Shown piece by piece: positions 12,120 through 44,854 of a stretch of DNA of 64,000 bases. Source of the stretch: Candidatus Woesebacteria bacterium RIFCSPHIGHO2_02_FULL_42_20 (lineage in GTDB: Bacteria; Patescibacteriota; Microgenomatia; UBA8517). The translations under genes and the position numbers were made by a program. How positions within the stretch are numbered: position 1 is the first letter of the stretch; every line of letters starts with the position of its first letter. The stretch spans positions 7,155 to 71,154 of the forward strand of contig MGGS01000002.1 in assembly GCA_001792535.1 (NCBI GenBank), written 5' to 3'. The notes under the pieces are model-generated. The model was given only the letters and a program-made list of their open reading frames with translations. It did no database searches and had not been told where the DNA came from.

Positions 12120-12128
12120 TTTGACTCA

Positions 12129-12770: not shown

Positions 12771-12876
12771 TTTCCATTTTTTGAGGGTAATTACTATTAA
12801 TGGCATTTTTTGAAATAATGTAAGAAATAAAGATCATATTGATTTAATCCTAACTCAGGATAATCTAACTTTTGAT

Positions 12877-13713: not shown

Positions 13714-13816
13714 AGTCGTTTAATCTGACAAGTCATCAATTGTCATAATCTAAACAATAAGTAATCGTTAATAGTTACAGATTTTTCCTTAAGTTAAATT
13801 GAAACATTAACAATTC

Positions 13817-16552: not shown

Positions 16553-16615
16553 CTTTATATATTACCTCAAATTGACTGTGAAGTCCCAATATATTACTAT
16601 TAATGAGATTAAAGG

Positions 16616-16855
16616 ATGCAGATTAAGTCAAAATTGGCTGCGTTTGCTGTGGTTATCTTCTGGTTATCGGTATTTGGGTTCTTAGCCTTTCACGATAGCC
16701 TTGAAAATTCCTGTCTGGAGGGAGAAACCAAAGCTTGCCTGCCGCCGGAATTTTTGCCAATTGTGATGGTCCTCATTTTTATTTCTTTCTTCTTTGTATT
16801 TTGGCTGTTTTTTTGGAAAGCGCGTGGGAATGCCTACCGACAAACATTATATTAG
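16616..16855 (+). CDS. possible small membrane protein (low confidence; overlaps 3' end of opposite-strand gene)
   Basis: 79 aa, two predicted TM helices; AAAGG abuts ATG. Confidence 0.25.
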   Translation: MQIKSKLAAFAVVIFWLSVFGFLAFHDSLENSCLEGETKACLPPEFLPIVMVLIFISFFFVFWLFFWKARGNAYRQTLY

Positions 16856-17486
16856 CTTCGGGATGAACAACTTGAACACTATCAAAAACCTTTTCAAGTT
16901 TTGTTAAAAATTTCATGGCTAAAGGTTTTTTTTCGCCATAATAAAGTCGATTAAAAATAGCGGTTCCTTTTGCTGACAAAACCTTTTTCACCAAGTTTAT
17001 AAACTTTGTAGTTTCAAATTTTTGAGGATAGTGGTCGCCGGTGTATAGATCAGTACAAACAAGGTCATAGTGACGGGTGACAGGTGACTGGTGACTCGTG
17101 AGAAATTCAAAAGCGTCATCAACAATTATATTTACGGCACAGTCTTCAAGTTTCAAATACTTCTTCCCAAGTCCTATCATAATCGGGTCGATATCTACCC
17201 CTGTGATTTTGGCGCGGGGAAAGTTTTTTCTGACCAATTTCGCAATTGTCCCCCCTCCCAATCCGAGGATCAGAACACTTTGGAAGTTTGGAAGTTTGGA
17301 AGTTTGGAGTTTTTTAAATGTGCTTTTCCACACCGCCTCTACAACTCCGCCGGACTGGGTGAGCCCCCCGGCTTGAATATGGGTTTTCCAGGCAAAGTCG
17401 TACTTAACTACAATATGCCCGTTAATCGGCGAGTCCGCCTCTTCCAAAATCCTCACCCCAGCCAAAAAATTCTGCAATTTCTCCAT
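16779..17486 (-). CDS. spermidine synthase-like class I SAM-dependent transferase (SpeE family-like)
   Basis: 235 aa; VLILGLGGGTIA (nucleotide-binding loop), KITGVDIDP, IIVDDAFEFL; contains in-frame 9-bp x3 tandem repeat. Confidence 0.6.
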   Translation of the reverse strand: MEKLQNFLAGVRILEEADSPINGHIVVKYDFAWKTHIQAGGLTQSGGVVEAVWKSTFKKLQTSKLPNFQSVLILGLGGGTIAKLVRKNFPRAKITGVDIDPIMIGLGKKYLKLEDCAVNIIVDDAFEFLTSHQSPVTRHYDLVCTDLYTGDHYPQKFETTKFINLVKKVLSAKGTAIFNRLYYGEKKPLAMKFLTKLEKVFDSVQVVHPEANIMFVGRHSHALSKKTAKIQRRKK

Positions 17487-17489
17487 CTA

Positions 17490-17927
17490 CTAATAATTAC
17501 CACCCTGAAAATACATTTTAGGAGTAATGACTTTTATCGGCTTAATAAATTTCTCAACTTTTTCATTCAAAAAGTGTTTTCTGTCCAATGTAAATAGACA
17601 ACCTGACTTTGATACTTTCGCTTGAGACAAAATAACTGCATCCTTTTTAACAATAACCATTTTTGCCTTTGAAATGTCTCTAACATTTGGTTCGATATCC
17701 AATATTATTAGTTTTTCAACTAGCCTGAAAAATCTACCAAGATGATAGCTTTCAAGTTTGTGTCTTACGTTTCTTTCAACTTCCGCCAGGACAACCTTCG
17801 AGGTGACTAACTTTAGTCCGCGGATTGTAAAAAGCTTCGATCACCCACCTGTTGGGGAATAGACAGCGGAAAATAGAACACTTGAATCAAGAAAAGCGAT
17901 TTTTAAAGCTCGTCTTCTTTTAGCCAT
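17490..17927 (-). pseudogene. PIN-domain (VapC-like) toxin gene interrupted by an in-frame TGA at codon 29
   Basis: ATG at 17927 overlaps antitoxin 3' end; MAKRRRALKIAFLDSSVLFSAVYSPTGG-TGA(17843-17841)-SKLF...CLFTLDRKHF; both halves are PIN-like (N-terminal FLDSSVL, C-terminal TLDRKHF) in the same frame. Confidence 0.55.
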
Positions 17928-18166
17928 TCTTTAATCTCGGAATTGGGAAAAATACGGGTATATTTGGAAAGCCTTGGGTCGATATAAGTTTTACCAAAAA
18001 CTTTTGCCACAGCCTTTCGCAGTCTGTCCAAATAATTTATGTCAACAATGGCAGCTTTAGCATTGCCTCCCTTTGTCAATATAAAATATTTCTCGCCCGA
18101 GACTTTCTCTGCTAATTCCCCCAGTATGCTTCTTGCCTTGGTGACAGGAATGATATTCATAACCAA
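17903..18166 (-). CDS. Phd/YefM-family antitoxin
   Basis: 87 aa; IPVTKARSILGELAEKVSGEKYFILTKGGNAKAAIVD matches Phd/YefM N-terminal fold; a PIN ORF follows with overlap. Confidence 0.7.
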   Translation of the reverse strand: MVMNIIPVTKARSILGELAEKVSGEKYFILTKGGNAKAAIVDINYLDRLRKAVAKVFGKTYIDPRLSKYTRIFPNSEIKEWLKEDEL

Positions 18167-18246
18167 ACTTTAACAATATAAATGTACAATGTCAATAATA
18201 GCGTAACAAAAAATGTACATGTTATAATACCACCCATAAATCAAAA

Positions 18247-19284
18247 ATGTCAGTTACCGAAACCGAACAGCAAATTTGGGGCAGATTACTTACTGTTAGT
18301 CCACGAGGATTTCTACAATGGAAAGAAGACATTTATCCAGGATTTGATGCGAGAAACGTCCCGGAAAGATTTGTTTATTTGACTGGTGGTCTAGCTGCAT
18401 TTGATGAGTACGAATTTGACTTTGCGCCTGCAAAATTAAAGCATGAAGGCCAAAACGAATTCACCACTAAAGAAAAAGAAACAGATATTAGAGGACTTTT
18501 TAGAACTTTGGATTTGTTTCAAATAGAATTTACAGAACCTAGAGAAATTTTATTAGTCGGGTCGTACAACCAGGACGGGTTGTTTTTGACTATCGGATTG
18601 TGCAAAAAAAAAGGGTGGAACGGGTCCCACATAACGCTAGTTGATCAATCAGATACTGTTTTGTCGCTACTAAGTGTAATGGGGGAAAATGGTTACTACG
18701 ACTGGCAAGCTGGAGTAACCCTCATAAAATCGGATATTACTGATTACAAACCTAAAGTTCAACCCGATATTGTTTTCGGAGATATATTGAATACCTGGAT
18801 GACTAGAGAATATAGCTGTCCAAGTTCAGCATCGGCAAAGTCACCATATAATGATTTCGAAGCATACCTAAGATATACAGCAACTAACATCAAACCCAAC
18901 GGATGGTTTTTCTCCAGATGTATGATTTTTCCAGACGATCAACAAAGTTTTGCTGCAAATAGACGGTCAACTTCTAATGTTGGTAATAGAGTCGACACTG
19001 TTTTAAATCGAATCGGAACACATTTTGAAGAGGTCGACAAACAGGCTCTCTCTGAAAACCTTGATGAGTTGTTTATTAACACACACACCACATCTTATTG
19101 TGGATTATCTTTGCTTCGACCACTTTATAAACCTTTTTCGACTCTAACCGGCCCGCATGCTGAGGAGGTATTTATCAGATTACATAATCGCAATTTCAAC
19201 GTAGTTCACAGAATAAAAGTTACACATCCCGAATCCGGCTTTGTTTTTCTAAACTTTGCTTGCCAGGGGAGAAAAACCCCTTAA
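18247..19284 (+). CDS. hypothetical protein (possible Rossmann-fold methyltransferase-like)
   Basis: 345-aa ORF; TATAAT ~18224-18229 upstream; no family recognised with confidence. Confidence 0.5.
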   Translation: MSVTETEQQIWGRLLTVSPRGFLQWKEDIYPGFDARNVPERFVYLTGGLAAFDEYEFDFAPAKLKHEGQNEFTTKEKETDIRGLFRTLDLFQIEFTEPREILLVGSYNQDGLFLTIGLCKKKGWNGSHITLVDQSDTVLSLLSVMGENGYYDWQAGVTLIKSDITDYKPKVQPDIVFGDILNTWMTREYSCPSSASAKSPYNDFEAYLRYTATNIKPNGWFFSRCMIFPDDQQSFAANRRSTSNVGNRVDTVLNRIGTHFEEVDKQALSENLDELFINTHTTSYCGLSLLRPLYKPFSTLTGPHAEEVFIRLHNRNFNVVHRIKVTHPESGFVFLNFACQGRKTP

Positions 19285-19350
19285 TACAAAAATTGTCCCT
19301 TTACTTCGCATTTTGTTCGCCTACTGTGCAGGTAAAGTTTATAATAAAGT

Positions 19351-20541
19351 ATGGCACAGCCACTGGCGGAAAAGTTAAGGCCCAACACTTTGGCTGATTT
19401 TGTCGGCCAAGAGCATTTGGTTGGTAAAAATGGGATTGTTAGAAAATTACTAACTAACCAACTGACCAATAACTATTTTCCGTCTCTGATTTTCTGGGGA
19501 CCGCCGGGGTCGGGCAAAACTACACTGGCCAGAATCGTCGCCAGTAAACTCAAGCGCGAGTTCTTCGAATTTTCCGCGGTAAACACCTCGGCTCGCGATA
19601 TAGAGAAAATAATCAAAAGCAACAGTCCAAAAACTATGAACTATGAACTAATAACCAAGAACTCTCCTATTGTCTTTATCGACGAAATCCACAGGTTCAA
19701 TAAAGCCCAGCAGGATAAACTCCTTCCTCATGTTGAACGTGGGAACATAATTCTAATCGGCGCGACAACCGAAAACCCGTCGTTTGAAGTCATCGGCCCA
19801 CTTTTATCTCGCACTAGAGTACTCGTTCTTAAAAGGTTGGAAGACAAGGAACTTGAAATTATTTTTAAGAAAGCGGTCAAATATTTAAAAATCAAAGTAG
19901 AGCCAAAGGCAAAAAGATTCTTAACCGACTCCTCAAACGGCGACGCGCGAGTTTTACTCAACGTCCTTGAAATTGCCAGCAACATCACTAAACACCATAC
20001 ACTAGTCACTAAACACGTCGAGGTTGCTTTGCAACGAAGACAACTAACTTTCGACCGCCGAGGCGAAGAATTCTACAATACGATAAGCGCATTTATTAAA
20101 AGTATGCGCGCTTCAAATGTTGATGCTGCACTTTATTACTTAGCCCGAATGGTTGAAGCCGGCCAAGACCCACTCTATATCGCCCGGCGAATGGTAGTAT
20201 TTGCCTCCGAAGATGTAGCCTCTCCTACCGCTTTGGTTGTTGCCAATGCAGTATTCCAAGCATGTCAGCAAATTGGTTACCCAGAGTGTCAGGAAAATTT
20301 AGCCGCAGGGGCAATCTATTTGGCAACAGCAAAAAAGGACAGGTCGGCTTATGACGCGTATATGAAAGCTTTGGGAGACGTCAAGAAAAATGGTAACCTG
20401 CCCATCCCGATGCAAATTTTGAATGCACCAACAAAGCTGATGAAAGTATTGGGCTATGGCAAAAGTTACGATAAATACACCAAAGAATCGTTACTACCAG
20501 AGAAGCTTAAAAACAAGAGATATTACCAAAAATCACTATGA
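19351..20541 (+). CDS. rarA: replication-associated recombination protein A (AAA+ RarA/MgsA)
   Basis: 396 aa; LAEKLRPNTLADFVGQEHL, Walker A GPPGSGKTTLA, Walker B VFIDEIHRFNKAQQD. Confidence 0.9.
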   Translation: MAQPLAEKLRPNTLADFVGQEHLVGKNGIVRKLLTNQLTNNYFPSLIFWGPPGSGKTTLARIVASKLKREFFEFSAVNTSARDIEKIIKSNSPKTMNYELITKNSPIVFIDEIHRFNKAQQDKLLPHVERGNIILIGATTENPSFEVIGPLLSRTRVLVLKRLEDKELEIIFKKAVKYLKIKVEPKAKRFLTDSSNGDARVLLNVLEIASNITKHHTLVTKHVEVALQRRQLTFDRRGEEFYNTISAFIKSMRASNVDAALYYLARMVEAGQDPLYIARRMVVFASEDVASPTALVVANAVFQACQQIGYPECQENLAAGAIYLATAKKDRSAYDAYMKALGDVKKNGNLPIPMQILNAPTKLMKVLGYGKSYDKYTKESLLPEKLKNKRYYQKSL

Positions 20542-21506
20542 AACTTAAAAAGCAAGCTACCATTGAAGTTAAGCCTACTTCTCCATTTAATTTTGATGCT
20601 ACATTCCATAAACCAGACCACTTTACCAGCGGGGATAACTACTGGGAAAAAGGAATAAGGTGGCAAACTTGGTTGTGGCAGAAAAAACCTCTAGGTTTAA
20701 AATTCAAAAATAACGGAAGTGTAAACAAACCACGTATCGATGTATCAATACATTACAACAAGATACTTTCTCAAAAATTTATAGACTTTTTAGTTGATGA
20801 AATAAAATACAGATACAATTTAGAACTTGAATTATCAGATTTCTACAAAAAATTTGAGGAAGATAAGGTTTTTAAACCAATTATTGAGAAATTATACGGA
20901 ATGAGACCAGGACACCCAAGTTCACTGTATGAATACCTAATAATCGGAATTGTTTTACAAAATGCAACAGTAAAAAGGTCGGTTCAAATGTTTAGAGCCT
21001 TACTTGAAAACTATGGTACAAAACTAGAGTATGACGGAAAGAGGCTTTGGTGTTTCTGGAAAGAGGGTGGGTTGTCAAAAACAACTGAACCGGAACTTAG
21101 AGATTTGAAAGTGGGTTATAGAGCCAAATCAATCAAAAAGACTGACGATTATTTTGCCCAGGGCGCGATTAACGAAATGGATTTAAGAAAAAAAGACAGA
21201 GAAACACAAATGACTGAGCTTTTAAAACTTTATGGAGTCGGACCTGCAACGGTGTGGTATTTACTTTTTGACGTCTTTCACCATTGGGACTTTTTCAATC
21301 ATGTTTCCCCTTGGGAGCAAAAAATCTACTCCAAAGTTTTCTTTAACAAAGATCCGGAAAACCCTGTGTCGGTTAAAAAACTACTCAAGCATTTTGGAAA
21401 ATTCGGCAAGTATAAACAACTAGCAGTTCACTACGTCTGGGAAGATCTATGGTGGACCCGTAAAAACAAACAAATCCCTTGGCTTGAGAAACTTATTCGA
21501 ACATAA
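20538..21506 (+). CDS. HhH-GPD superfamily DNA glycosylase-like protein (AlkA/Ogg-like), tentative
   Basis: 322 aa; helix-hairpin-helix LKLYGVGPATVWYLL; start overlaps rarA stop (ATGA). Confidence 0.45.
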   Translation: MKLKKQATIEVKPTSPFNFDATFHKPDHFTSGDNYWEKGIRWQTWLWQKKPLGLKFKNNGSVNKPRIDVSIHYNKILSQKFIDFLVDEIKYRYNLELELSDFYKKFEEDKVFKPIIEKLYGMRPGHPSSLYEYLIIGIVLQNATVKRSVQMFRALLENYGTKLEYDGKRLWCFWKEGGLSKTTEPELRDLKVGYRAKSIKKTDDYFAQGAINEMDLRKKDRETQMTELLKLYGVGPATVWYLLFDVFHHWDFFNHVSPWEQKIYSKVFFNKDPENPVSVKKLLKHFGKFGKYKQLAVHYVWEDLWWTRKNKQIPWLEKLIRT

Positions 21507-21603
21507 GACAATTCAAATATATTTATAAAAAGTGTTGAAATCTGTGGGAGCAGAAGATATAAAAAGACTTAAAATTATTTGGTCGTATCCTCCGAAGTCT
21601 TGT

Positions 21604-21849
21604 TTACTGGTACAAGATGCATCGCACTCCTGACTTTCTGGTGCCGTTGGCTTTCATTCCGGTACATCTTTTGGCAAACTCTCCAATTTCGGTTCCTTCA
21701 TCTTTGTCCGGCCCGAGTGGGTCGGTTACCACAGCCGAACAAGTCGGGCAGACCCGACAAACATTTATTGTGTTAAACCTTGTACTTGCAAAAAGTTCTT
21801 GGATCCTCTCCATTCTCGTGCCTTGATTCATTTCTTTAGCCCTAGTCAT
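21604..21849 (-). CDS. small Cys-rich (zinc-ribbon-like) protein of unknown function
   Basis: 81 aa; CRVCPTC ... C ... C; strong SD GAGGGGG 1-2 nt before ATG. Confidence 0.45.
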   Translation of the reverse strand: MTRAKEMNQGTRMERIQELFASTRFNTINVCRVCPTCSAVVTDPLGPDKDEGTEIGEFAKRCTGMKANGTRKSGVRCILYQ

Positions 21850-21894
21850 ACCCCCTCGTTTATACTATATGGATATAATACTACATTTTCCACT

Positions 21895-23721
21895 CTATTG
21901 ATATCCCTTTGCCTGGATTGTAAAGAGCTCGTGGTAAAGCCCCCCGAGTTTCATAAGCTCGTCATGCGTTCCGCTCTCGGTGATTCTGCCTTTGTCCAAC
22001 ACAAAAATCCTGTCCGCGTATCGGACAGTAGAAAACCTTTGCGACACGAAAATAAGTATTTTGTCTTTAGTTTTCTTGAGAAGCTCTCTAAATATCTGTT
22101 CCTCAGCCTTAGGATCGACGTTACTTGTCGGTTCATCCATTATCAAAATATCGGCATTTTTACGAAATAACATTCTGGATATCCCAACTCTTTGCCATTG
22201 GCCGATTGAAAGATCCACTCCTTTGTCAAACTCCGGTGCCAGAGGGTGTTTATATTTAAGTGGCAGTGTTTCAATAAACTTATCAATCGTGGTTTTATGC
22301 GCCGCTTCTTTTATCTGACCTAACTTATTTACCCTTGAGATATCCCCATAACCGATTGACTCCTGGGCAGTAAAAGGATAACTTTCAAACTTCTGAAAAA
22401 GAATTGCAAGACGTCTGCGGTATGAACCAAGATTAAAATCTTTAAGATCGCTCCCAGCGACAACTATTTTCCCTTTTTCAGGATCATAGAACCTGGCTAA
22501 AAGTTTAATTAAAGTCGATTTACCCGCGCCGTTTTCGCCGACCAAAGCAATTTTTTCTCCGGGATTAACGTGCATATTAACTCCCTTTAAAATCCAATTT
22601 TTGCTTTTCGGATAGCGAAACCAGACATTTTTGGCCTCAAGAGAAAGCCGTTTATACGAGTAGGCGTTTTTGCCGGTTTTGGCTTTTTCATTTATCACAG
22701 GCTTAAGATTTAGAAACCAAATCAGATCAACGACATAAATATAATTTTCATAAATTTCCAAAACTGAATTGACCAGTCCTGTCAAGTTGCTTTCAGCTGA
22801 CCTGAGGGAACGGAGGTAAAGCTCGAAAGAGCCTATTGTAATTTTTTCTGTAATTACCAAAAAAATCAGCCAGACCGAAACAGCAAATTCATAGAAAGTA
22901 AGAGGCAGGAAAGTACCAAAATTAGACAACTCCCGTTTTTTGGACAGCTCCATTTGTTTATCTATGGTCTCGCTTTGAATACTTTTAAGCTTTTTAGTTA
23001 AATAGCCGGATATGCCAAGAATTTTAAGTTCCAAAAAATTTTTGTTACGGACCAAGTAATAGGTAAGCCAGCCCCACATACGGTATTTTGCCGAGAGTGC
23101 GGTTTCAAGCTCATACTCTTTTTTGATATACTTGCCGCTAACGAAAAATTGGGGAAGCGAAAAAACAAGCACACCCAAGGCAATTAATGGGTGAAGTAAA
23201 ATTAAAATGCCGACTACAGAAATAAAACCGATTAAATAATTTGAAATATCACTTAAAGGCATCATTAAGCCCCATGCGCGCCTCCCTGATTCTCTTTCGA
23301 TTTTTGTATATTTATTTTTGAAATCCGGGTCATCAATAGTTGCAATATCCAACTCGGTCATCTTTTTTGCCATCATAATCTCGAGCTCGGAGGCAAAGGT
23401 TTGGGACATTTTGCGACTTAGGAAGCCGTTTACCCGGCTTAAGACATTTCGAAAAAGTTCCAAAAGAAGCCTTAGAAAGATAATTCCGCCGATAAGATAC
23501 ATGGCTTGCCTCCAATTTGGGTCGCCAATTGAGGCAATTAGGTTATCAAGAATAAGCTTTTCCAGATAAAACCCGGGGGCGGTGGAAAATCCCCAAATGG
23601 CGTTTAAAATAAGAACTAGTACCAGAAATTTTCTGTTGGTTTTTGCAGCCAAGCGCACCACTTCACGAAAAACAAAAAACACCTGTCCAAAACGATCGAA
23701 GGTAATTCTTGGCTTCTGCAC
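21895..23721 (-). CDS. ABC exporter, fused permease + ATPase (MsbA/multidrug type)
   Basis: 608 aa; six TM region then NBD with Walker A GENGAGKST, signature LSIGQWQRV, Walker B ILIMDEPTS. Confidence 0.9.
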   Translation of the reverse strand: MQKPRITFDRFGQVFFVFREVVRLAAKTNRKFLVLVLILNAIWGFSTAPGFYLEKLILDNLIASIGDPNWRQAMYLIGGIIFLRLLLELFRNVLSRVNGFLSRKMSQTFASELEIMMAKKMTELDIATIDDPDFKNKYTKIERESGRRAWGLMMPLSDISNYLIGFISVVGILILLHPLIALGVLVFSLPQFFVSGKYIKKEYELETALSAKYRMWGWLTYYLVRNKNFLELKILGISGYLTKKLKSIQSETIDKQMELSKKRELSNFGTFLPLTFYEFAVSVWLIFLVITEKITIGSFELYLRSLRSAESNLTGLVNSVLEIYENYIYVVDLIWFLNLKPVINEKAKTGKNAYSYKRLSLEAKNVWFRYPKSKNWILKGVNMHVNPGEKIALVGENGAGKSTLIKLLARFYDPEKGKIVVAGSDLKDFNLGSYRRRLAILFQKFESYPFTAQESIGYGDISRVNKLGQIKEAAHKTTIDKFIETLPLKYKHPLAPEFDKGVDLSIGQWQRVGISRMLFRKNADILIMDEPTSNVDPKAEEQIFRELLKKTKDKILIFVSQRFSTVRYADRIFVLDKGRITESGTHDELMKLGGLYHELFTIQAKGYQ

Positions 23722-23763
23722 TTTCTTATTATAAACTTAATGAAGCTAAATAGTCAGTTACTA

Positions 23764-24159
23764 TTTAGTTGTGGTCAAAAGCAAGAGGTGGAATTTCTTT
23801 CAAATCAAACCATTTTATCTCTGAAACATCATCACTTGGGTGAGGGACACCATTAACCTCAACTCTATAAACAACAGTTATCACCTGTTTCTCGTGTCTT
23901 TTGGGGTCTCAATATACATTAAAAAGCTGGAGAGCTTTCACACTAAGACCTGTTTCCTCTTTTAGTTCTCTTCTTACAGCGTCTTCAGGCGACTCACCCC
24001 ACTCGACATAGCCACCAAAAATTCCCCAGTACGCGCCGAAGGGGTCATATTTTCTTTTCCCAAGAAGTATTTTCCGCCCTTGATAATTAGACAGTCTATG
24101 GAAATGCCACGATTGTTAAATCTGCCACAATGTGGGCAGGGCTCACTTCTTGATAACAT
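23764..24159 (-). pseudogene. Nudix hydrolase gene disrupted by a -1 frameshift in a poly-A run (~24055-24058) and an in-frame TGA (~23909-23911)
   Basis: frame 1: MLSRSEPCPHCGRF..CLIIKGGKYFLGK; frame -1: RKYDPFGAYWGIFGGYVEWGESPEDAVRRELKEETGL (perfect Nudix box GX5EX7REUXEEXGU) ...LFNVY-TGA-DPKRHEKQVITVVYRV...EIKWFDLKEIPPLAFDHN; a fifth A in gggaaaag restores ...FLGKRKYDPF. Confidence 0.6.
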
Positions 24160-25378
24160 CTTTTCCAATCCACTTTCTCAACACTTCCGGGACAACGACC
24201 GATCCGTCTTTTTGCTGGTAGTTTTCGAGAATTGCCAAGGGCGTTCTGGAAGTAGCGATAGCCGTCCCATTGAGCATGTGGACATAATCAGTTTTTCCGT
24301 CTTTGGTCCGATATTTAATATTTAAGTTTCTGGCCTGATAGTCTGTGCAATTTGACGTTGAAGTTACTTCGCCATAATCATCCCGGCTCGGCATCCAAGC
24401 CTCAATGTCAAATTTCCTGGCAGCCATTGCGCCCAAATCCCCCGTGCACATCTCCAAAACCCGGTAAGGCAGCCCCAGCTCTTGATAAATTTCCTCTTCC
24501 ATCTTTAGTAAATACTCATGCATTTTATTGGATTCTTCAGGGATGCAGTAAATAAACATTTCGGCTTTTGTAAATTGGTGGACTCGGTAAATTCCTTTTG
24601 AGTATTTGCCATACGCCCCCGCTTCTTTCCTAAAACAATGAGAGTAGCCGATATATTTTAATGGTAATTTGTCTTCGGGGATAACTTCGTCAGCGTGCTT
24701 GCCAGCCAGGGTCACTTCTGCCGTGGCAATAAGCCCCAAGTCCTCATCTTTAATTTCATATGTTTGGGCCTCGTCACCTTTGGGCATATAGCCTGTGCCA
24801 AGGTAATACCTTGATTTAGCCAAATCGGGCGTGATTACTGGCAAAAAACCTTCTTTGGTAAGTTTATCAAAGGCGTAGTGAATTAATGCAAGTTCCATTA
24901 AAGCCCCGTCGCCGTATAAATAATAAAACTGCGAGCCAGCGACCTTCGCACCTGTTTCAAAGTCCAAAATTCCTAAAGCTTTTCCGAGTTCCAAGTGATC
25001 TTTAGGTGCAAAGTTAAATTTTTTTGGTTCTCCCCATTTTCTGACTTCAACGTTGTCTTTTTCGTCTTTGCCAACAGGAACCATGTCCAAAGCTGGATTG
25101 GGAATTAAGTTTAAAGCATTAAAATAGTTCTTTTCGGCTTTATCGAGTTCTGGTTCCTTTTTTTTAAGCTCCTCTTTAACTTGCTTACCGGCTACAATGT
25201 TTTTTGATTTTGCAATTTCATTCCTCTCTGCTCTCAAAGTTTCAATTTCGCCAATAAGTTTTCTGCGCCTTTCATCGATCTCAAGGAGTTTGTCTACCAA
25301 CGAAGGATCCATTTGTTTATCTTTAACTGCCTTTTTAAACTTTCCTGGATCTTCTCTAAGTAATTGAATATTAATCAC
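24143..25378 (-). CDS. serS: seryl-tRNA synthetase
   Basis: 411 aa; N-terminal coiled-coil arm, class II motifs; GTG start with TATAAT 6 nt upstream; TGA stop. Confidence 0.93.
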   Translation of the reverse strand: MINIQLLREDPGKFKKAVKDKQMDPSLVDKLLEIDERRRKLIGEIETLRAERNEIAKSKNIVAGKQVKEELKKKEPELDKAEKNYFNALNLIPNPALDMVPVGKDEKDNVEVRKWGEPKKFNFAPKDHLELGKALGILDFETGAKVAGSQFYYLYGDGALMELALIHYAFDKLTKEGFLPVITPDLAKSRYYLGTGYMPKGDEAQTYEIKDEDLGLIATAEVTLAGKHADEVIPEDKLPLKYIGYSHCFRKEAGAYGKYSKGIYRVHQFTKAEMFIYCIPEESNKMHEYLLKMEEEIYQELGLPYRVLEMCTGDLGAMAARKFDIEAWMPSRDDYGEVTSTSNCTDYQARNLNIKYRTKDGKTDYVHMLNGTAIATSRTPLAILENYQQKDGSVVVPEVLRKWIGKDVIKK

Positions 25379-25576
25379 GTTTTGATTATACCTTACAATG
25401 CATGCTTATTAATATTCTCTCGTAAACTTTCCAATTTGAAGGGGGTTCTTAATATTTACTGTTATGCAAGTACAAGTTCAGATTGCTACTTCGGGATCAG
25501 CGCTTTTTCCTATTTCCTATTGTGCGATTTAACAATATTGAAGATAAAAATGTATAATAATACCCATACCGGAATT

Positions 25577-26128
25577 ATGAGTAAAGATTTATTCGCACTT
25601 TTTCGTGAGGTAGGGAGATTAAAAAGGATTAAAAGAACAGGTTGGGTGTTAAAAGGTATCAAAGATTCAGAAAGCGTCGCCGACCATGTCTTTAGAACCG
25701 CATTTATGTGTATGGTACTGGGAAGAAAACGAAAGCTTGATTTAATCAAGTTGGTCAATATGGCTTTGATACACGATCTTGGTGAGACAGCGACCTCCGA
25801 TATCAGATACGAAGAAGGCAAAAGAATTTTCGCATCGAAAGATGCTAAAGAAAAAATTGAGGAGGACGTTTTACAGATGGTCCTTCCTTCAACCGGTGAA
25901 AAAGATTATTACCTTTCCTTATTTTATGAATTTCGTGATCAGACATCTGATGAGGCACGATTCTTGAAGGAAGTCGAAAAGCTTGAAATGGCACTTCAAG
26001 CTTTGGAGTATCAAGAATTTGGCGTAAAGCCAAAACTCATGGATGAATTTTTTGAAAATGCCGCAAAATATATAAAAGATAAAGAAATTAAAAAGATGTT
26101 TGAAAAAGTTCGCTCATTCAGAAGTTAA
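25577..26128 (+). CDS. HD-domain 5'-deoxynucleotidase (YfbR-like)
   Basis: MSKDLFALFREVGRLKRIKRTGW..SESVADHVFRTA..LIHDLGE; the track ORF start 25364 overlaps serS and is rejected; ATG 25550 is an alternative. Confidence 0.7.
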   Translation: MSKDLFALFREVGRLKRIKRTGWVLKGIKDSESVADHVFRTAFMCMVLGRKRKLDLIKLVNMALIHDLGETATSDIRYEEGKRIFASKDAKEKIEEDVLQMVLPSTGEKDYYLSLFYEFRDQTSDEARFLKEVEKLEMALQALEYQEFGVKPKLMDEFFENAAKYIKDKEIKKMFEKVRSFRS

Positions 26129-26133
26129 GGTCT

Positions 26134-26712
26134 TTATAATCCCAAATCATTTGCAATTTCCTGCATTGCTTTTAGAGCTATCCCGATAAAGTCGGGAAGT
26201 TTTATCCCAAGCTTCTCCTCACACATCTCAATTTGTTTTCTGTCCACCCCTTTTGCAAACTCTTTGTGGGACCACTTTTTGATAACTGATTCAACAGTAA
26301 CCGACGACAGTTTTTTATCAGGCCGAACAAGTGCGACAGCGATGATAAAGCCGGTCAATTCGTCACAACAATAAAGTGCCCACTGCATGGTGGTCTTGGG
26401 AAGTTTACCTTGATGAAACCAGCCGTGGGACTCTATCCCAGTCAAAACTTCCTCATTTGTCTCCCCTGCCTCGGCCGCCCATTGCGCCATGAGTTTTGCA
26501 TGCTTTTCAGGATGCTCCTTGGTGAATTCATAGTCTCCGTCATGGAGTAGGCCTACTATTCCCCATGCTTCGACAAGCTCAGCACTTGCAGTTTTGCCTT
26601 CCAGTTTTTTTGCCAAAGCCCGCATTACAGTTTCCACAGCATAACAATGCTTGCGCAAGTTCGGTGATTGCATTTTGGAATGCAGTAAATCTAAAGCTTT
26701 TTCTCTTGTCAT
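26134..26712 (-). CDS. HD-domain phosphohydrolase
   Basis: 192 aa; H...HD motif (VGLLHDGDYEF) and downstream conserved His/Asp. Confidence 0.65.
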   Translation of the reverse strand: MTREKALDLLHSKMQSPNLRKHCYAVETVMRALAKKLEGKTASAELVEAWGIVGLLHDGDYEFTKEHPEKHAKLMAQWAAEAGETNEEVLTGIESHGWFHQGKLPKTTMQWALYCCDELTGFIIAVALVRPDKKLSSVTVESVIKKWSHKEFAKGVDRKQIEMCEEKLGIKLPDFIGIALKAMQEIANDLGL

Positions 26713-28277
26713 TTTTGGTTTGATGTCAGGCGCCCTATTATATCTTTTTTAGGAAATTTTTTAAGTAACCAACCGGCCCTTGGACCATGGTCTTTATCAA
26801 GAACCACGGTATACAAAGCCTTGAAAGCATCTTTTGTATTGATATCAATTTTTTTGATTAACCTAAAAATTTCGCTTTGAAGATTTTCGGGCTCCGAAAC
26901 TTTTTGCCAAATATTTCCCAGATCGTTCAAAAAACGCCATTGTATTTCCGACAAATTTAAATCATCCACAGATTTAATCGATATCTGATATTTATATTCA
27001 TCAGGTGCATATTTACTAAGCCAAATAAAAACATAAGTCAATCTATCATATAAGTCTTTTATTTCAATATCTGTTAACTTAGATCCTTTTATCTCCTCGA
27101 AACGTTTCTCAAGTTTTATATTTGGAAGTTGAGAGTAATTAGCAATATCGCGAAAACGCGGAAGAAAATGCATTTTGGGCTGCTTACTACTCACTTGAGA
27201 CACTTCAAAAATTCGCGCGTTAACTGTACCTTTATTATCCCAGTATTCCCCGGCACATTTATCATACTCGTCAAAAAGATTTGGAATCGTCATACCGAAA
27301 GGGTCAAAGTCTATTTGTTTGCTGAATTTGACCCGGGAGATCATAAAGCGAACAAGGTATGGTGGAATAATTTCGGATACCTCTAGCGCTGAGCTTCCGA
27401 AACCTTTAGATGAACTCATTTTGCGGCCGCCGACTAAGAAGAATTCATGGGAAAACGCGTAGGGGACAGGGTAATTCAATACATTTTTGCACATCAGCTT
27501 TGCAAAGTCGTGGCTGCTGCCGGCACTCATATGGTCTTTGCCCGCGCCTTCAATAGTTACACCGATTACGTTCCATTTACACGGCCACTCTACCTTCCAG
27601 GGAAGTTTTCCTGCAAAATAATTATTAGAACTAAAAGGTGAAGCTTTGCCTTTATTGCCGCATCCTTTCGTCCATTCAAGGCCGTCAATTTTGCACTCGT
27701 AAGTTACTTTTTCTCCATCCCACGCGGTTACTGTAGTCGTTGAGATTTTGTTGCACTTCCCGCAACGCGGACTAAACGGGTACCAGTCTTTGGGACGCTC
27801 CTTTTTATAAAATTTTTTATATATTTTTCGAATCTCGCTCGCTTTATCTAAACACAATTGGACAGCATTGTTCATTTTCCCCGACATGTATAGCTCGCTT
27901 CCCCAAATAATTTTTGGGTGGACACCGATTTTATTGAATATTTCGATATATTCTTCTCCCCAACGCCTGCCGTAAGACTTATAACCCGGCTCAGGGGAAG
28001 GGATCATAAACAAAGGTTTACCCATTTCCTGACGATATTTCTCCTGATCTACATAAATAGGGAGCCCGTCCATCGGATCATGATCTTCCAAAACATAAGT
28101 AAAAGTTACTTTTTTACCCAGATCAAAAAGGGCACGCCGAATAAGGTCATGAGTGACAACTGCGCGAACAGAGCCGATATGCACTCTGCCCGACGGCGTT
28201 TTCATGTCGTCAACCCAATAGGGTAGATGTTGTTTGGAGTCAATTATTTCATTTGCTATTTTATCCGCCCAATACAT
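26709..28277 (-). CDS. lysK: class I lysyl-tRNA synthetase (archaeal-type LysRS)
   Basis: 522 aa; HIGS (HIGH-type) motif region TPSGRVHIGSVRAVV; KMSSSKG (KMSKS) motif; TATAAT 6 nt upstream of ATG. Confidence 0.85.
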   Translation of the reverse strand: MYWADKIANEIIDSKQHLPYWVDDMKTPSGRVHIGSVRAVVTHDLIRRALFDLGKKVTFTYVLEDHDPMDGLPIYVDQEKYRQEMGKPLFMIPSPEPGYKSYGRRWGEEYIEIFNKIGVHPKIIWGSELYMSGKMNNAVQLCLDKASEIRKIYKKFYKKERPKDWYPFSPRCGKCNKISTTTVTAWDGEKVTYECKIDGLEWTKGCGNKGKASPFSSNNYFAGKLPWKVEWPCKWNVIGVTIEGAGKDHMSAGSSHDFAKLMCKNVLNYPVPYAFSHEFFLVGGRKMSSSKGFGSSALEVSEIIPPYLVRFMISRVKFSKQIDFDPFGMTIPNLFDEYDKCAGEYWDNKGTVNARIFEVSQVSSKQPKMHFLPRFRDIANYSQLPNIKLEKRFEEIKGSKLTDIEIKDLYDRLTYVFIWLSKYAPDEYKYQISIKSVDDLNLSEIQWRFLNDLGNIWQKVSEPENLQSEIFRLIKKIDINTKDAFKALYTVVLDKDHGPRAGWLLKKFPKKDIIGRLTSNQK

Positions 28278-28290
28278 AACTTGATTATAC

Positions 28291-28313
28291 TAAAAAACCC
28301 CGCTTTTGCGGGG
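28291..28313 (-). terminator. intrinsic terminator downstream of greA
   Basis: minus strand CCCCGC-AAAA-GCGGGG followed by TTTTTT; 20 nt after greA stop. Confidence 0.6.
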
Positions 28314-28332
28314 TTAAAGTTTTTTAAACTTA

Positions 28333-28794
28333 TTAGTTAATCGACAATATCTCATATACTACCTTGCCTGCCGGTGCTTCGACTTCCACCTTATCCCCCT
28401 TCTTTTTATTCAATAATGCTTGCCCCAAAGGCGACTCGATTGAAATCTTGCTTTTTACAGGGTCTGCTTCCCACTCGCCAACCAAATGGTATATCGTTTG
28501 GTTGCTGTCGTATTTGACACTTACTTTTGCCCCCAGACCGACCTTTCCATGACCGTTTGAAGCCTTTGCAACAACCGCGTTTTTAAGGACAGTCTCGACC
28601 TCTGCGATTCTACCGTCCAAAAACTCGAGCTCGTCTTTTGCATTATAGTAATCGCTGTTTTCTGCAAGATCTCCTTCACTTCGGGCACGCGAAAGCCGCT
28701 CGACTAATTTAGGACGCTTAATGTTCACTAATTCGTCGAGTTCTTGTTTTAAAGACTCAAAACCTTCTTTTGTTACTTGTATTTGTTTGTCCAT
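28333..28794 (-). CDS. greA: transcription elongation factor GreA
   Basis: 153 aa; N-terminal coiled coil with DLAENSDYYNAKDELEFLDGRI, C-terminal FKBP-like domain; GGAG SD. Confidence 0.9.
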   Translation of the reverse strand: MDKQIQVTKEGFESLKQELDELVNIKRPKLVERLSRARSEGDLAENSDYYNAKDELEFLDGRIAEVETVLKNAVVAKASNGHGKVGLGAKVSVKYDSNQTIYHLVGEWEADPVKSKISIESPLGQALLNKKKGDKVEVEAPAGKVVYEILSIN

Positions 28795-28971
28795 ATTTAC
28801 TCCAAAAAATTATCCCTCATCGTTTCGGCTTGTGGAAATATACACGTGGGAATATTTCCAACAGCTAAATGACCTTATTGCAAAAGGTTTGAAAAGCCAA
28901 AACGTATGAAGGAGTCCCAACCATGTTAATTACTGGAATATGCTATACCCGGCGGTAACTTTTGTCAATGA

Positions 28972-29079
28972 CCCGTTGTATTTTCCGTTACTCGGGAATT
29001 GTTTGAATCAAATGTCCCCGAAAGACTTTCCCGGGAACAGAAGAATCTTCTTGAGGAATTTAAAGGAGTGGGGTTATAA
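28972..29079 (+). pseudogene. remnant of a dnaJ 3' end (diverged partial duplicate of nt ~12040-12119)
   Basis: translates [35 protein letters not shown] vs DnaJ C-terminus [28 protein letters not shown]; ~80% nucleotide identity over ~70 bp including the GGGTTATAAT stop-proximal tract. Confidence 0.5.
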
Positions 29080-29086
29080 TAGCAAT

Positions 29087-30055
29087 ATGCCGGATTATGA
29101 ACCGGGTGCACAACAGATAGAAGTTGACCTTTCGGGCAAAAGCGAATTTGCTCGTCTGTTGCATGAGAAAGCAAACACCCCCCCCGAAACTCCGTTGAAT
29201 GAAATTGCCGCCAATGGATATGAAGTTTGGTATTCTTTACTTGAGAGCACTAGAGCTTCGCCTCGTGATTTACGGGACTTTTTGGTTTGGAATGTGGACT
29301 GGTTGCAGAGAGAATCTGATGATGGAGCAAAAAATCTTGTGGAAGTGCAGCTTAAGGCGATAGCCGGACTTGACGGCGATGACACGTATGTTACTGATGT
29401 TGTATCCATGCTGGATAGCTCAGTTAGAACTAATGAAAGAGCAGCGGCATATGATCAGGAAATGATAGATGCGCAGGATGCCTCACTTTTGAAAAGATTG
29501 GCAAATAAACTTGGCATTTCGACAGAAAAGGATCGCTTGATGCAGGTTAAAGGAAAAAACTCAAAGAGGGCAGTGGGTCATAAAGTTTTATTGAGGCAAT
29601 ATTTGGATGACGAACTAACTAAAAGAATTGTTACTCATCAGCCTGGTTACGACGAGGTTGCCCGGCCGTGGAATGAGCTACCCAGAGCTGAACCAGTAGT
29701 TCAACCCACCGATGTTGTGGATATTCAAGTGCTAATGCTTAGCGGACCTGATAAAAGACTGGGCCATCTTGAATTTTATCTCGAGAAAGCAGCTGAAGCT
29801 TTTTCACAACTGGGTATTGATGTGGATGAGGTGCCTTATCAAGTAGCCTTGCTTGACCTTAGAGTCTCTGGTGGCAAAAAGGGGTTCGCAAGACAGTTTG
29901 TCGAGGCTCAAGTCGGGGAGAGAATAAACGGTTCATTGCGAGCAAAAGATCAAAAGGGTCGTGAAAGTCAATATAATCAAGCTTCAAACTGGCAGCAGTT
30001 TGCAGATCTGCTTCCTCCAGCTCCAACAAGCGACTTCGGCACTGCGTTTAGTTGA
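29087..30055 (+). CDS. hypothetical protein
   Basis: ~322 aa from ATG 29087 (MPDYEPGAQQ); the track ORF from 28940 includes the dnaJ-remnant region in another frame; GC visibly higher than flanks. Confidence 0.5.
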   Translation: MPDYEPGAQQIEVDLSGKSEFARLLHEKANTPPETPLNEIAANGYEVWYSLLESTRASPRDLRDFLVWNVDWLQRESDDGAKNLVEVQLKAIAGLDGDDTYVTDVVSMLDSSVRTNERAAAYDQEMIDAQDASLLKRLANKLGISTEKDRLMQVKGKNSKRAVGHKVLLRQYLDDELTKRIVTHQPGYDEVARPWNELPRAEPVVQPTDVVDIQVLMLSGPDKRLGHLEFYLEKAAEAFSQLGIDVDEVPYQVALLDLRVSGGKKGFARQFVEAQVGERINGSLRAKDQKGRESQYNQASNWQQFADLLPPAPTSDFGTAFS

Positions 30056-30316
30056 TTAAAACTTGTATATTCCGCCTCTGTAGCCAACTTTTCGGATCCA
30101 AATTTCATTTTTAGTTTTGTCGGCTTCAAATAATGCTCTAATTCTGCCCGATCTCAATCTGAAGAAGCTATTTACGCCGGAAATTGGCTTTATATCCAAA
30201 TTATTTGGGAAAGGGTAAGTCAGTTTAGAAACTTTTTGGAGTGTGTTTTTAACGTCTTTTTTTGCAATTTTTTCTAAATCTTTTTCTGCTTTTGAAGTAA
30301 AGAAGACGCTATACAT
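30056..30316 (-). CDS. RelE/ParE-family toxin
   Basis: 86 aa; FRLRSGRIRALFEADKTKNEIWIRKVGYR matches RelE/ParE C-terminal core; overlaps upstream antitoxin by 8 nt. Confidence 0.75.
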   Translation of the reverse strand: MYSVFFTSKAEKDLEKIAKKDVKNTLQKVSKLTYPFPNNLDIKPISGVNSFFRLRSGRIRALFEADKTKNEIWIRKVGYRGGIYKF

Positions 30317-30575
30317 ACTTTTTGAGTATCTTCTCTAGTGGAATTCCCTTTCCTCTTTTCACTTTAAACAACTTTTCTGCCTCACTCTGATCTCTACGGT
30401 CCTCGAGCAGCTCCTGTAGGAGTATAAACTCGTTGAGATTAAGAATAACAGCTTTTGGTTTAGATCTGTGGAAAATATAAGCCAAGCCTTCATTTTCGAC
30501 CTGCTTTAAGAGTCCAAGCGCGTTCTCGCGCATATCGGTTATAGTTTTGACATTCTTTAATGTTGGTATTAACAT
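30309..30575 (-). CDS. Phd/YefM-family antitoxin
   Basis: 88 aa; TITDMRENALGLLKQVENEGLAYIFHRSKPKAVIL. Confidence 0.75.
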   Translation of the reverse strand: MLIPTLKNVKTITDMRENALGLLKQVENEGLAYIFHRSKPKAVILNLNEFILLQELLEDRRDQSEAEKLFKVKRGKGIPLEKILKKYV

Positions 30576-30671
30576 AAGATTAATATAGAGAAATATCTAA
30601 GGTTTGTCAAGACATTGACTTAAGATAAATTTAGACCTAAACTATAGCAGGTTAAAAAGGTTGTTGTGATT

Positions 30672-30700
30672 GGTGGGGTGACCCACCATTTTTAATAAAT
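30672..30700 (+). promoter_or_regulatory. leader hairpin + U-tract (terminator/attenuator-like) upstream of nusA
   Basis: GGTGGG-GTGA-CCCACC perfect 6-bp stem followed by ATTTTTAAT, 13-41 nt upstream of nusA ATG. Confidence 0.4.
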
Positions 30701-30712
30701 AAGCTAAAAATT

Positions 30713-31744
30713 ATGGTAGCGCAGACGGCCAGAACAGAATTTGCACAAGCTCTCAAAGCAGTTGCTACGGAGCGGGGGCTTGATGTGGACGTTATTCTCG
30801 ACACTATCAAGCAGGCAATTATAGCAGCGTATAAAAGAGACGCCCGTGACCGCGGTGAGGAGGTTGAAGAACTTGTTTATGAAGTGGAACTTGATCCGGT
30901 TTCCGGCGAAGCCAAAATTTTTTCGTTTGAAGAAGGCAAGGAAAAGAAGAAAAAAGACATTACCCCTCCCGGTTTTGGCCGAATAGCTGCCCAGACTGCG
31001 AAACAGGTTATTCACCAAAAAATTCGCGAGGCGGAAAAGGACGCTGTCTTAGGGGAATTTTCCGATAGGATGGGGTCACTCGTGTCGGGTATGATACTTC
31101 GCTTTGACGGGCCAAATGTGCGGATCGACTTGGGTAGAACAGAAGCTTTAATGCCCGCCGAGGAGAGGATCCCTAATGAGCGGCTTTCATTGAGCCAAAG
31201 GCTTACATTCCTTCTGAAAAATATTGTCGAAGGCCCGAGAGGAAAAGACGTGATATTGTCTCGATCCGACCCTGAGTTTGTTAAACGGCTTTTTAGCCGT
31301 GAGGTCCCGGAACTTTCAAATGGAAGCATTGAAGTGAAAGAGATTGTTAGAGAGGCTGGGGTGAGGACAAAAATTGCCGTTGTGTCGAGTCAGTCGGGAG
31401 TAGATCCGGTGGGTTCGTGTGTCGGCCAAAAAGGTGTCCGCGTGCAGGCCGTAACAAATGAGCTGGGAGGAGAAAGGGTAGATATCATTCCTTGGACTGA
31501 CAACATAAAAGACTTGATTAAATCGGCGCTGGCTCCCGCCGAGATAGATTCAATTACGATTACAAAAACGACAGCTACCGCAAAAGTGACTGTCCCCGAA
31601 GACCAGTTGTCAATTGCTATCGGTAAAGACGGTCAAAATGTGCGTCTTGCAAGTAAGCTTGTCGGGGTTAAAATCGATGTTGTATCCTCTGGTAAAAGTT
31701 CAGATAAGCTTGACCAAGGGAAAAAAGAAGTAAAGAAGTCCTAG
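30713..31744 (+). CDS. nusA: transcription termination/antitermination factor NusA
   Basis: 343 aa; N-terminal domain, S1 (GSLVSGMILRF), two KH domains. Confidence 0.92.
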   Translation: MVAQTARTEFAQALKAVATERGLDVDVILDTIKQAIIAAYKRDARDRGEEVEELVYEVELDPVSGEAKIFSFEEGKEKKKKDITPPGFGRIAAQTAKQVIHQKIREAEKDAVLGEFSDRMGSLVSGMILRFDGPNVRIDLGRTEALMPAEERIPNERLSLSQRLTFLLKNIVEGPRGKDVILSRSDPEFVKRLFSREVPELSNGSIEVKEIVREAGVRTKIAVVSSQSGVDPVGSCVGQKGVRVQAVTNELGGERVDIIPWTDNIKDLIKSALAPAEIDSITITKTTATAKVTVPEDQLSIAIGKDGQNVRLASKLVGVKIDVVSSGKSSDKLDQGKKEVKKS

Positions 31745-39738: not shown

Positions 39739-39773
39739 GCATAATGCTTCTTTTTCTGTTAATATAATTTAAA

Positions 39774-44790: not shown

Positions 44791-44854
44791 ATCTGGATTA
44801 TATCAGCTGGTAGATTATTTCCAAATTAAGACACAAGTTGGGTATAATGGGTGT

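Follow-up and report, generated by a model that had tools for sequence, protein, structure and literature searches.

A non-coding dnaJ 3' end beside nusA, probably orphaned by a relocated 17-kb core-gene block, in a Woesebacteria-like genome

At rhs, contact-dependent inhibition (CDI), and type VI secretion system (T6SS) effector loci, C-terminal displacement leaves orphan 3' ends, according to what is cited from Jackson et al. 2009 in PMC5361080. Displaced 3' ends have been ascribed to homology-facilitated illegitimate recombination (Kirchberger et al. 2017, PMC5361080), which has been described in Acinetobacter, Streptococcus pneumoniae, Pseudomonas stutzeri, and E. coli (PMC3240628, PMC5361080). 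The primary concern of this study is a short copy of the end of the chaperone gene dnaJ, here called the relic, at positions 29014-29080 of a 64,000-nt stretch of Candidatus Woesebacteria bacterium RIFCSPHIGHO2_02_FULL_42_20 (GCA_001792535.1, contig MGGS01000002.1, positions 7,155 to 71,154; the whole stretch is referred to as the window). The relic is a real but dead, non-coding dnaJ gene end, or pseudogene fragment. It is probably an orphaned, displaced 3' end, a scar at a dnaJ-nusA hot spot of this Woesebacteria-like genome (candidate phyla radiation (CPR)/Microgenomates): a 17-kb block would have been placed between dnaJ and its old or an alternative tail, with the end of that tail kept as the promoter of the hypothetical gene that follows (HYP). 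As such, the relic is a further example of a known scar type, ordinary but unusually readable.

The locus resembles C-terminal displacement in that a gene whose 5' part is constant is followed by a direct-orientation copy of its own 3' end, which keeps the former downstream partner; in that the fragments seem to resemble other alleles and not decayed duplicates, and recur at one hot spot in related genomes; and in that the proposed mechanism combines one-sided homology with an illegitimate join. However, dnaJ is a housekeeping chaperone gene and not a polymorphic toxin gene, the dnaJ piece comprises only 21-35 codons of conserved tail and lacks a variable toxin tip, the partner HYP is an ORFan and not a known immunity gene, and the intervening DNA in the window is a 17-kb core block instead of an effector-immunity module. 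As in homology-facilitated illegitimate recombination, a truncated and possibly foreign gene end lies beside cargo with a conserved anchor (nusA or dnaJ) on one side, although here the mechanism is one that we only infer. Gene-end duplication at attL/attR is also similar, with direct repeats of a gene 3' end that bracket inserted DNA and leave the gene intact, but this locus lacks a recombinase and an identical core, and what lies between its repeats is core genome.

The sequences that make up the repeat are the following:

11244-12119, plus strand: resident dnaJ, intact, 291 aa, with J domain and DnaJ_C (Pfam); it closes the hrcA-grpE-dnaK-dnaJ cluster.
12054-12120, plus strand: resident copy of the repeated tail (local alignment, repeat search).
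28977-29013, plus strand: a diverged dnaJ-tail piece (VVFSVT and 21 extra nt) or junction filler; 4/6 aa match VRISVT, at the protein level only.
29014-29080, plus strand: core relic, consisting of the last 21 dnaJ codons, the TAA stop (29077-29079), and 1 nt; non-coding now, and identical in three metagenome-assembled genomes (MAGs).

Local alignment pairs 12054-12120 with 29014-29080 without gaps, 53 of 67 nt being identical (79%) and the longest identical run being 10 nt. The initial annotation of this DNA had reported a dnaJ 3'-end duplicate 17 kb away and had named a comparison with shuffled sequence as the check; the duplicate is borne out, with an alignment score of 64 against 15.9 +/- 2.3 for 1000 shuffles (maximum 28; z ~21). 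The same segment is the top non-self match to the dnaJ 3' end on both strands of the whole window, and within 11800-30800 the 67-nt pair is by far the longest direct repeat, all other pairs being 35 nt or shorter. At the protein level, DnaJ residues 271-291 are matched at 29014-29076 with 16/21 aa identical (tblastn, E 1.5e-4 against the whole window and 2e-8 against the intergenic region). The translation quoted in the initial annotation is correct, as is the TGA that it placed immediately upstream, which lies in frame at 28969-28971. Its length of ~100 bp is sound for 67 nt only: the extension over 28972-29013 is weak, with a 21-nt in-frame gap and no gain in nucleotide score, and the corresponding 7-codon insertion is absent from all 80 relatives in the comparison set, which consists of the dnaJ loci of related species (Woesebacteria/Microgenomates). 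Because no other DnaJ segment, including a J-domain remnant, was found by tblastn in any frame of 28795-29090, and because greA starts at 28794 on the opposite strand, what remains here is a short, dead end of the gene. The order expected of a displaced 3' end is found here: intact dnaJ, then a direct-orientation copy of its own tail, then HYP at 29087. On the minus strand, 29013-29039 within the relic forms a terminator-like hairpin (11 pairs, then TTTGATT), with no minus-strand gene immediately upstream.

The position of the relic is best understood from the relatives, the nearest of which carry the labels Candidatus Woesebacteria or Patescibacteria. Among the 73 relatives with enough downstream sequence, 61 have nusA-infB downstream of dnaJ on the same strand, in the order hrcA-grpE-dnaK-dnaJ-nusA-infB. 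The gap between dnaJ and nusA is 53-214 bp in 27 of these 61 and 7.5 kb at most, while in the window it is 18.6 kb (dnaJ ends at 12119 and nusA starts at 30713). The relic lies 1.6 kb 5' of nusA with only HYP and a ParE/Phd pair between them. Since it sits where the end of dnaJ is expected, the relic marks the ancestral dnaJ-nusA junction, and its locus is the ancestral site of the single dnaJ beside nusA and not a paralog locus. In 24 of the 27 short-gap relatives, the dnaJ stop is followed by a conserved TTGACTTC-17-TAAAAT promoter and then a GGTGGG...CCCRCC-T-run hairpin, and the window has the equivalent next to nusA:

30615-30712, plus strand: nusA promoter TTGACT-17-TAAACT and terminator-like hairpin GGTGGGGTGACCCACC plus T-run, in the conserved dnaJ-nusA spacer; promoter and hairpin are intact at 30615-30695.
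30713-31744, plus strand: nusA, ancestral downstream neighbour of dnaJ.

The spacer hairpin stands ~25 nt after the promoter, just 5' of the nusA ATG (30615-30712 in the window; also in the L004-L049 spacers, where L numbers refer to relatives and population variants). The promoter-hairpin has no match in Rfam, but could act as a NusA-dependent autoregulatory attenuator.

The DNA that separates dnaJ from the relic consists of core genes. In the lines below and in the text, R is the closest relative found (L084 = L164, L167).

12110-12128, plus strand: left junction, GGGTTATAAT, which is dnaJ 'G L stop' plus T and also the -10 region of the GyrI-like gene (alignment with R).
12121-28976, minus strand with some genes on the plus strand (+): relocated block, 17 kb (Pfam, synteny in relatives), with, in order, GyrI-like (+), hyp278, secA, methyltransferase, Phd/PIN remnant, hyp345 (+), mgsA (+), hyp322 (+), ABC (ATPase), serS, HD3 (+), HD, lysS (class-I), and greA with its upstream region.
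28795-28976, minus strand: intergenic region upstream of greA, forming the block's right end.

In ~40 related metagenome contigs, greA-lysS-HD-serS-mgsA-methyltransferase-secA is one syntenic unit, and in those contigs it never adjoins dnaJ or nusA. R, with 82% aa identity to the window in SecA, 84% in GreA, 73% in LysS, and 72% in the GyrI-like protein, carries the block from greA to the GyrI-like gene between a 275-aa gene and HhH-GPD, so that the GyrI-like gene is not beside dnaJ; HhH-GPD also follows secA in two further relatives. Because the block sits at another site with other flanks in relatives, its move appears to be specific to the lineage of the window. At the right end, 28795-28976 is 78% identical over 157 nt to the region upstream of greA in R; the alignment extends to 28976, beyond which the two are unrelated, and the next feature in R is the end of the 275-aa gene. 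With homology to R stopping at 28976, the relic would begin 0-37 nt from the right end of the block. At the left junction, the window has GGGTTATAATTTGACTCAATG and the GyrI upstream region of R has GGGGATTATAATCTGATACAGTG; ahead of the GyrI-like gene, the sequence is TTTTGGGGATTATAATCTGATACAGTG in R and GAAGAAGGGTTATAATTTGACTCAATG in the window. Block homology begins inside GGxTTATAAT, a 10-nt microhomology identical to dnaJ 'Gly-Leu-stop' plus T, and we propose that the left join used, or was selected for, this microhomology, which keeps both dnaJ and the -10 box of the GyrI-like gene intact. The truncating element is the upstream 17-kb block, and not HYP or the toxin-antitoxin pair. The sequence TTTGACTC, 3' of the resident stop, was considered as an ancestral nusA -35 box and rejected, as alignment with R identifies it as the leader of the GyrI-like gene itself. 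Pfam, PHROG, Rfam, tRNA, and repeat scans of 11-32 kb found no integrase, transposase, phage family, tRNA, Rfam match, or terminal inverted repeat. The empty donor site (275-aa gene beside HhH-GPD) was sought in this genome, and the HhH-GPD homologs examined belong to other organisms.

The arrangement is not an assembly artefact. The window DNA is also found in the NCBI MAGs GCA_001793165.1, GCA_001793275.1, and GCA_001792415.1, and the junction from greA through the relic, HYP, and the toxin-antitoxin pair to nusA is identical across three NCBI MAGs. Six contigs, each from a different sample, carry the dnaJ-GyrI-secA junction at 99.7-100% identity (among 24 contigs with the gene). Misassembly is excluded because the junctions recur in this way.

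If the origin of the tail is to be judged, then the kind of substitutions it carries is informative. The 14 differences between relic and resident tail include seven synonymous codon changes and one K>R in the first 15 codons; the variable final six codons hold a further four replacements (Sd 7.5, Nd 6.5, pS 0.52, pN 0.13). The frame of the relic is open for 35 codons, while 55% of simulations with 14 random changes gained a stop and only 0.17% matched the observed synonymous count without one. A fairer null, in which the resident copy is under selection and the other copy decays, predicts ~30% synonymous changes; the observed share is 54% for the window relic and 52% for five relics pooled (Sd 26.2, Nd 23.8, pN/pS 0.23; P 0.0003-0.002 against an in-place duplicate with one copy decaying). 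The resident tail matches the tail of L033 at 52/67, approximately the same as it matches the relic (53/67), and synonymous sites are saturated between this genome and R (pS 0.63-0.82). For these two reasons the relic is as diverged as an ortholog. Its substitution pattern (pS 0.52, pN 0.13) fits a tail that accumulated most of its changes while still part of a working dnaJ allele. In a mosaic test of the resident dnaJ against the 80 relatives, identities of 57-78% were too low for a recombination breakpoint to be visible.

Orphan dnaJ pieces in direct orientation are also present downstream of intact dnaJ in four relatives, and possibly in a fifth:

L037, 11639-11681: 13 codons and stop.
L008, 12109-12136: 9 codons and stop.
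L030, 1651-1710: ~21 codons and stop.
L063, 12503-12591: internal 24-codon piece.
L021, 11341-11379: weak.

The L030 relic is closer to the tails of L056 (46/57) and L032 (44/57) than to its own resident tail (38/57), and the breakpoints of the window, L030, and L063 relics are all within a few codons of a 'V/I-P-E-K-L' motif. Because the pooled pN/pS is low and the L030 relic is nearer to foreign tails, the relics look like the ends of other working dnaJ alleles that recombination has displaced. Insertions recur in the dnaJ-nusA spacer of this group, which is a hot spot for them, with orphan dnaJ tails in several genomes. Two further apparent duplicates, in L042 and L058, were discarded as A-rich low-complexity matches. 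A shared TrpR-like insertion was rejected as the cause of the L030 and L037 relics; TrpR-like genes are common cargo there, and the relics are not consistently alongside them.

The relic also contains a promoter-like site. Leaderless-mRNA promoters, in which the -10 box lies ~6-7 nt ahead of the start codon, occur in Actinobacteria, Deinococcus, and archaea. The relevant features here are the following:

29051-29080, plus strand: promoter-like site in the relic, TTGAGG (29051-29056), 18 nt, TATAAT (29075-29080); promoter scan 10/12.
29087-30055, plus strand: HYP, a 322-aa ORFan directly 3' of the relic, with no homolog beyond its own species.
19340-19345, 23728-23733, 25385-25390, 28284-28289, 39763-39768, 44797-44802, and 44843-44848: TATAAT examples elsewhere in the window.

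HYP starts with an ATG 6 nt beyond the -10 box TATAAT, which itself overlaps the former dnaJ stop. This TATAAT-N6-ATG layout resembles that of leaderless promoters and is shared by seven other window genes, but unlike in known leaderless promoters the -10 box of HYP is supplied by the stop codon and final sense codon of a former upstream gene. A perfect TATAAT 5-6 nt ahead of the start codon is found at 8 of 57 window genes (~0.05 expected), including lysS, serS, the ABC gene, mgsA, and HYP; eight of the 51 TATAAT hexamers in the window are at exactly this distance, and Shine-Dalgarno motifs are rare, almost absent. Leaderless-type expression seems to be the rule for operon-first genes here. 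The serS and ABC genes with this layout use GTG starts. HYP begins 7 nt past the relic stop, and the same layout follows intact dnaJ in L033 and L056. Where intact dnaJ directly precedes a cargo ORF (L033, L056, L028, and L053), it ends in TTATAAT with 6-8 nt to the ATG, while dnaJ genes that precede the nusA promoter instead do not have this ending. The L037 relic has the same layout, TTGAAG-18-TATAAT-9-ATG. The initial annotation had pointed to GGGTTATAAT ahead of an ATG at both sites, and it is present in both (12110-12120 with ATG at 12129; 29071-29080 with ATG at 29087). It is, however, more than duplicated context, as it constitutes the -10 box of leaderless-type promoters, and the left copy doubles as the promoter that the GyrI-like gene of the block brings with it. 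The leaderless-type promoter of HYP is probably formed by the relic's final ~30 nt, a role that would explain why the end of the tail is preserved, and the upstream 37 nt are probably a passenger.

The repeat, the ancestral synteny, both junctions, the codon pattern, the promoter architecture, and the recurrence in other genomes are observed; from them we infer an order of events and a mechanism, an allelic or foreign origin of the tail, and activity of the promoter. In the ancestral order, a small cargo consisting of HYP and the toxin-antitoxin pair would have stood between dnaJ and nusA. The 17-kb core block, located elsewhere in relatives, would have arrived between the intact dnaJ and an old or alternative dnaJ tail, its left end joining at the dnaJ stop via the microhomology GGxTTATAAT and its right end cutting a dnaJ copy at about codon 257-270. 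The tail would come from a different functional dnaJ allele, either as the former resident tail or as an import with HYP from a related strain; in the import variant, a relative would have contributed relic, HYP, and toxin-antitoxin pair together, with nusA as the anchor. The proposed route is a recombination in which one side would rely on homology while the other would be joined illegitimately, as happens in 'C-terminal displacement', and the tail would survive as the carrier of the HYP promoter in its last ~30 nt. A fresh in-place duplicate is a less likely origin of the tail. The window data fit both histories, a displaced former resident tail and an import with HYP.

Several points weigh against this history. 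No donor or intermediate genome, with a relic-type tail on an intact dnaJ, is present in the collections searched, which may lack it, and HYP has no homolog outside its own species, leaving the import step presumptive. The block ends touch the dnaJ stop and the relic directly, and a single insertion with duplication is simpler than two events. With the window locus alone, the fairer null gives P ~0.05, estimated from substitution counts; the strong P against in-place decay comes only from pooling other genomes. The relic is closest, if narrowly, to its own resident tail (53/67, compared with 49 and 48 for the best other species), which also fits in-place duplication. As for the promoter, its -35 element TTGAGG is weak and its use is deduced from sequence alone; only the last ~12-30 nt are needed, which leaves the retention of 29014-29050 unexplained; and the L008 relic has the same TTGAGG-18-TATAAT with no downstream same-strand ORF.

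In-place target duplication is a real alternative, though we consider it unlikely. One event would have copied or pasted the 17-kb block into the single dnaJ near its 3' end, leaving a duplicate of the final 67-104 nt, e.g., by replication template switching at microhomologies; the copies, identical at first, would then have diverged to 79%, and the right copy would have decayed except for the promoter part. That no spare sequence separates the block ends from the two copies, that the microhomology GGxTTATAAT is at the left junction, and that the relic is nearest to its own resident tail are all as expected from such an event, and the pS of 0.63-0.82 to the closest relative indicates time enough for 21% divergence afterwards. 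A decaying copy, however, should not show an intact frame or the synonymous enrichment observed (54% here and 52% pooled against ~30% expected; pooled P ~0.001), and the L030 relic, being nearer to foreign tails, indicates that at least some hot-spot relics are not in-place duplicates. We also know of no bacterial insertion mechanism that gives a 67-104 bp target duplication, and transposon target-site duplication is ruled out, as the repeat is 67 nt at 79% with no terminal inverted repeats and no transposase.

The initial annotation had instead proposed a second complete J-protein paralog destroyed by the insertion of HYP and the RelE/YefM module. The coding-type divergence of the relic would suit a former gene, and HYP and the toxin-antitoxin pair do resemble accessory cargo. 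The relic is indeed a gene remnant, a non-coding dnaJ 3' end, but its site is that of the ancestral single dnaJ: comparison with related genomes, which the annotation had named as a check for an intact paralog, shows one dnaJ and then nusA, with no intact second dnaJ at this locus in any relative examined and only fragments elsewhere. Nor is there an interruption, because HYP begins 7 nt beyond the intact stop of the relic and is thus downstream of the gene end, while on its 5' side the relic is cut off at the greA end of the block. HYP was also described as GC-richer, which does not hold, as its GC of 0.43-0.45 is within the local range of 0.31-0.50. We regard this paralog as very improbable, and an integrated mobile element that targets the dnaJ 3' end and supplies a replacement tail as even more so. 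Repeats in direct orientation that derive from a conserved gene's 3' end and stand 17 kb apart, together with dnaJ-tail copies recurring at the same site in several genomes, would be expected of attL/attR, but the bracketed segment consists of conserved single-copy core genes (secA, serS, lysS, greA, mgsA) that are syntenic elsewhere in relatives, and Pfam and PHROG scans of 12.1-30.6 kb yielded no site-specific recombinase; transposases, phage families, tRNAs, and terminal inverted repeats are likewise missing. The longest identical run of 10 nt and the small insertions in L037, L008, and L030, which have no recombinase-sized ORFs, also argue against it. Least credible of all is a functional micro-ORF for a free DnaJ C-terminal peptide (TTG at 28999, 26 codons). 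The frame is open over 28972-29079 and the aa sequence is fairly conserved; however, TTG is the only start and has neither a TATAAT 5-6 nt upstream nor a Shine-Dalgarno motif, no plus-strand promoter is predicted upstream, and the L037 and L008 relics have only 9-13 codons and no starts.

Taken alone, this rearrangement scar changes nothing fundamental. It does, however, allow the movement of a 17-kb block of essential genes within a reduced CPR genome to be reconstructed at the nucleotide level, each junction lying just outside a promoter, and it provides a clear sequence-level case for leaderless-type promoters in a Woesebacteria genome, including ones built from the stop-codon region of the preceding gene. 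This is useful for calling gene starts in CPR genomes. A broader possibility, which we offer tentatively and think more doubtful than not, is that the last ~20 dnaJ codons in Woesebacteria ('EE..GL-stop', TTGAGG-N18-TTATAAT) form a portable module, serving as promoter for the next gene and as recombination anchor for exchanging cargo among lineages at the dnaJ-nusA hot spot, with orphan tails kept as promoters of displaced cargo genes. The orphan tails would then be the housekeeping-gene counterpart of rhs/T6SS orphan arrays.

The cargo at the window locus is HYP and a toxin-antitoxin pair. HYP had only self-matches in 5.8 billion clustered proteins and 1.84 billion representatives, and no Pfam, PHROG, or viral matches; viral contigs searched with the HYP protein and a back-translated relic pattern gave nothing. 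Its AF2 single-sequence model has a pLDDT of 38 and no confident structure, and the population variant P0002 has an internal deletion. The toxin-antitoxin pair lies between HYP and nusA, and a homologous pair is found at another site in L037:

30056-30316, minus strand: ParE/RelE-like toxin (Pfam PF05016, E 6e-5).
30309-30575, minus strand: Phd/YefM-like antitoxin (Pfam PF02604, E 6e-5).

The dnaJ-nusA spacer holds other cargo in L056 (11935-19808), L030 (1015-1611), L037 (10897-11346), L012, L005, and L042. That of L056 includes a 2191-aa RHS/YD-repeat protein and the following gene, and elsewhere there are TrpR-like regulators (two families, six genomes), membrane proteins, and toxin-antitoxin pairs. 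Many Woesebacteria-type dnaK-dnaJ-nusA contigs (DnaJ 63-73% identical; L004, L007-L009, L011 etc., L027, L038) carry other labels, namely 'uncultured Gammaproteobacteria', 'Pseudomonadales', 'Alphaproteobacteria', and 'Woesearchaeota archaeon', which look like taxonomy mislabels.

Within the block, the Phd/PIN toxin-antitoxin pair at 17490-18169 is common to R (80-84% aa), and its PIN gene, with 145 aa in the population variant L176 and 56 aa in others, may be decaying. The block also varies at a second spot, the interval that separates secA from the GyrI-like gene: the window has one hypothetical 278-aa gene at 12877-13713 (272 aa in some strains), and R has five genes (L164 12809-17476; 90 aa, PIG-L, acetyltransferase, Band_7, PPDK_N). 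A tandem repeat, TTTGGAAG x3, lies at 17279-17318 in the 5' part of the methyltransferase gene (16779-17486, minus strand).

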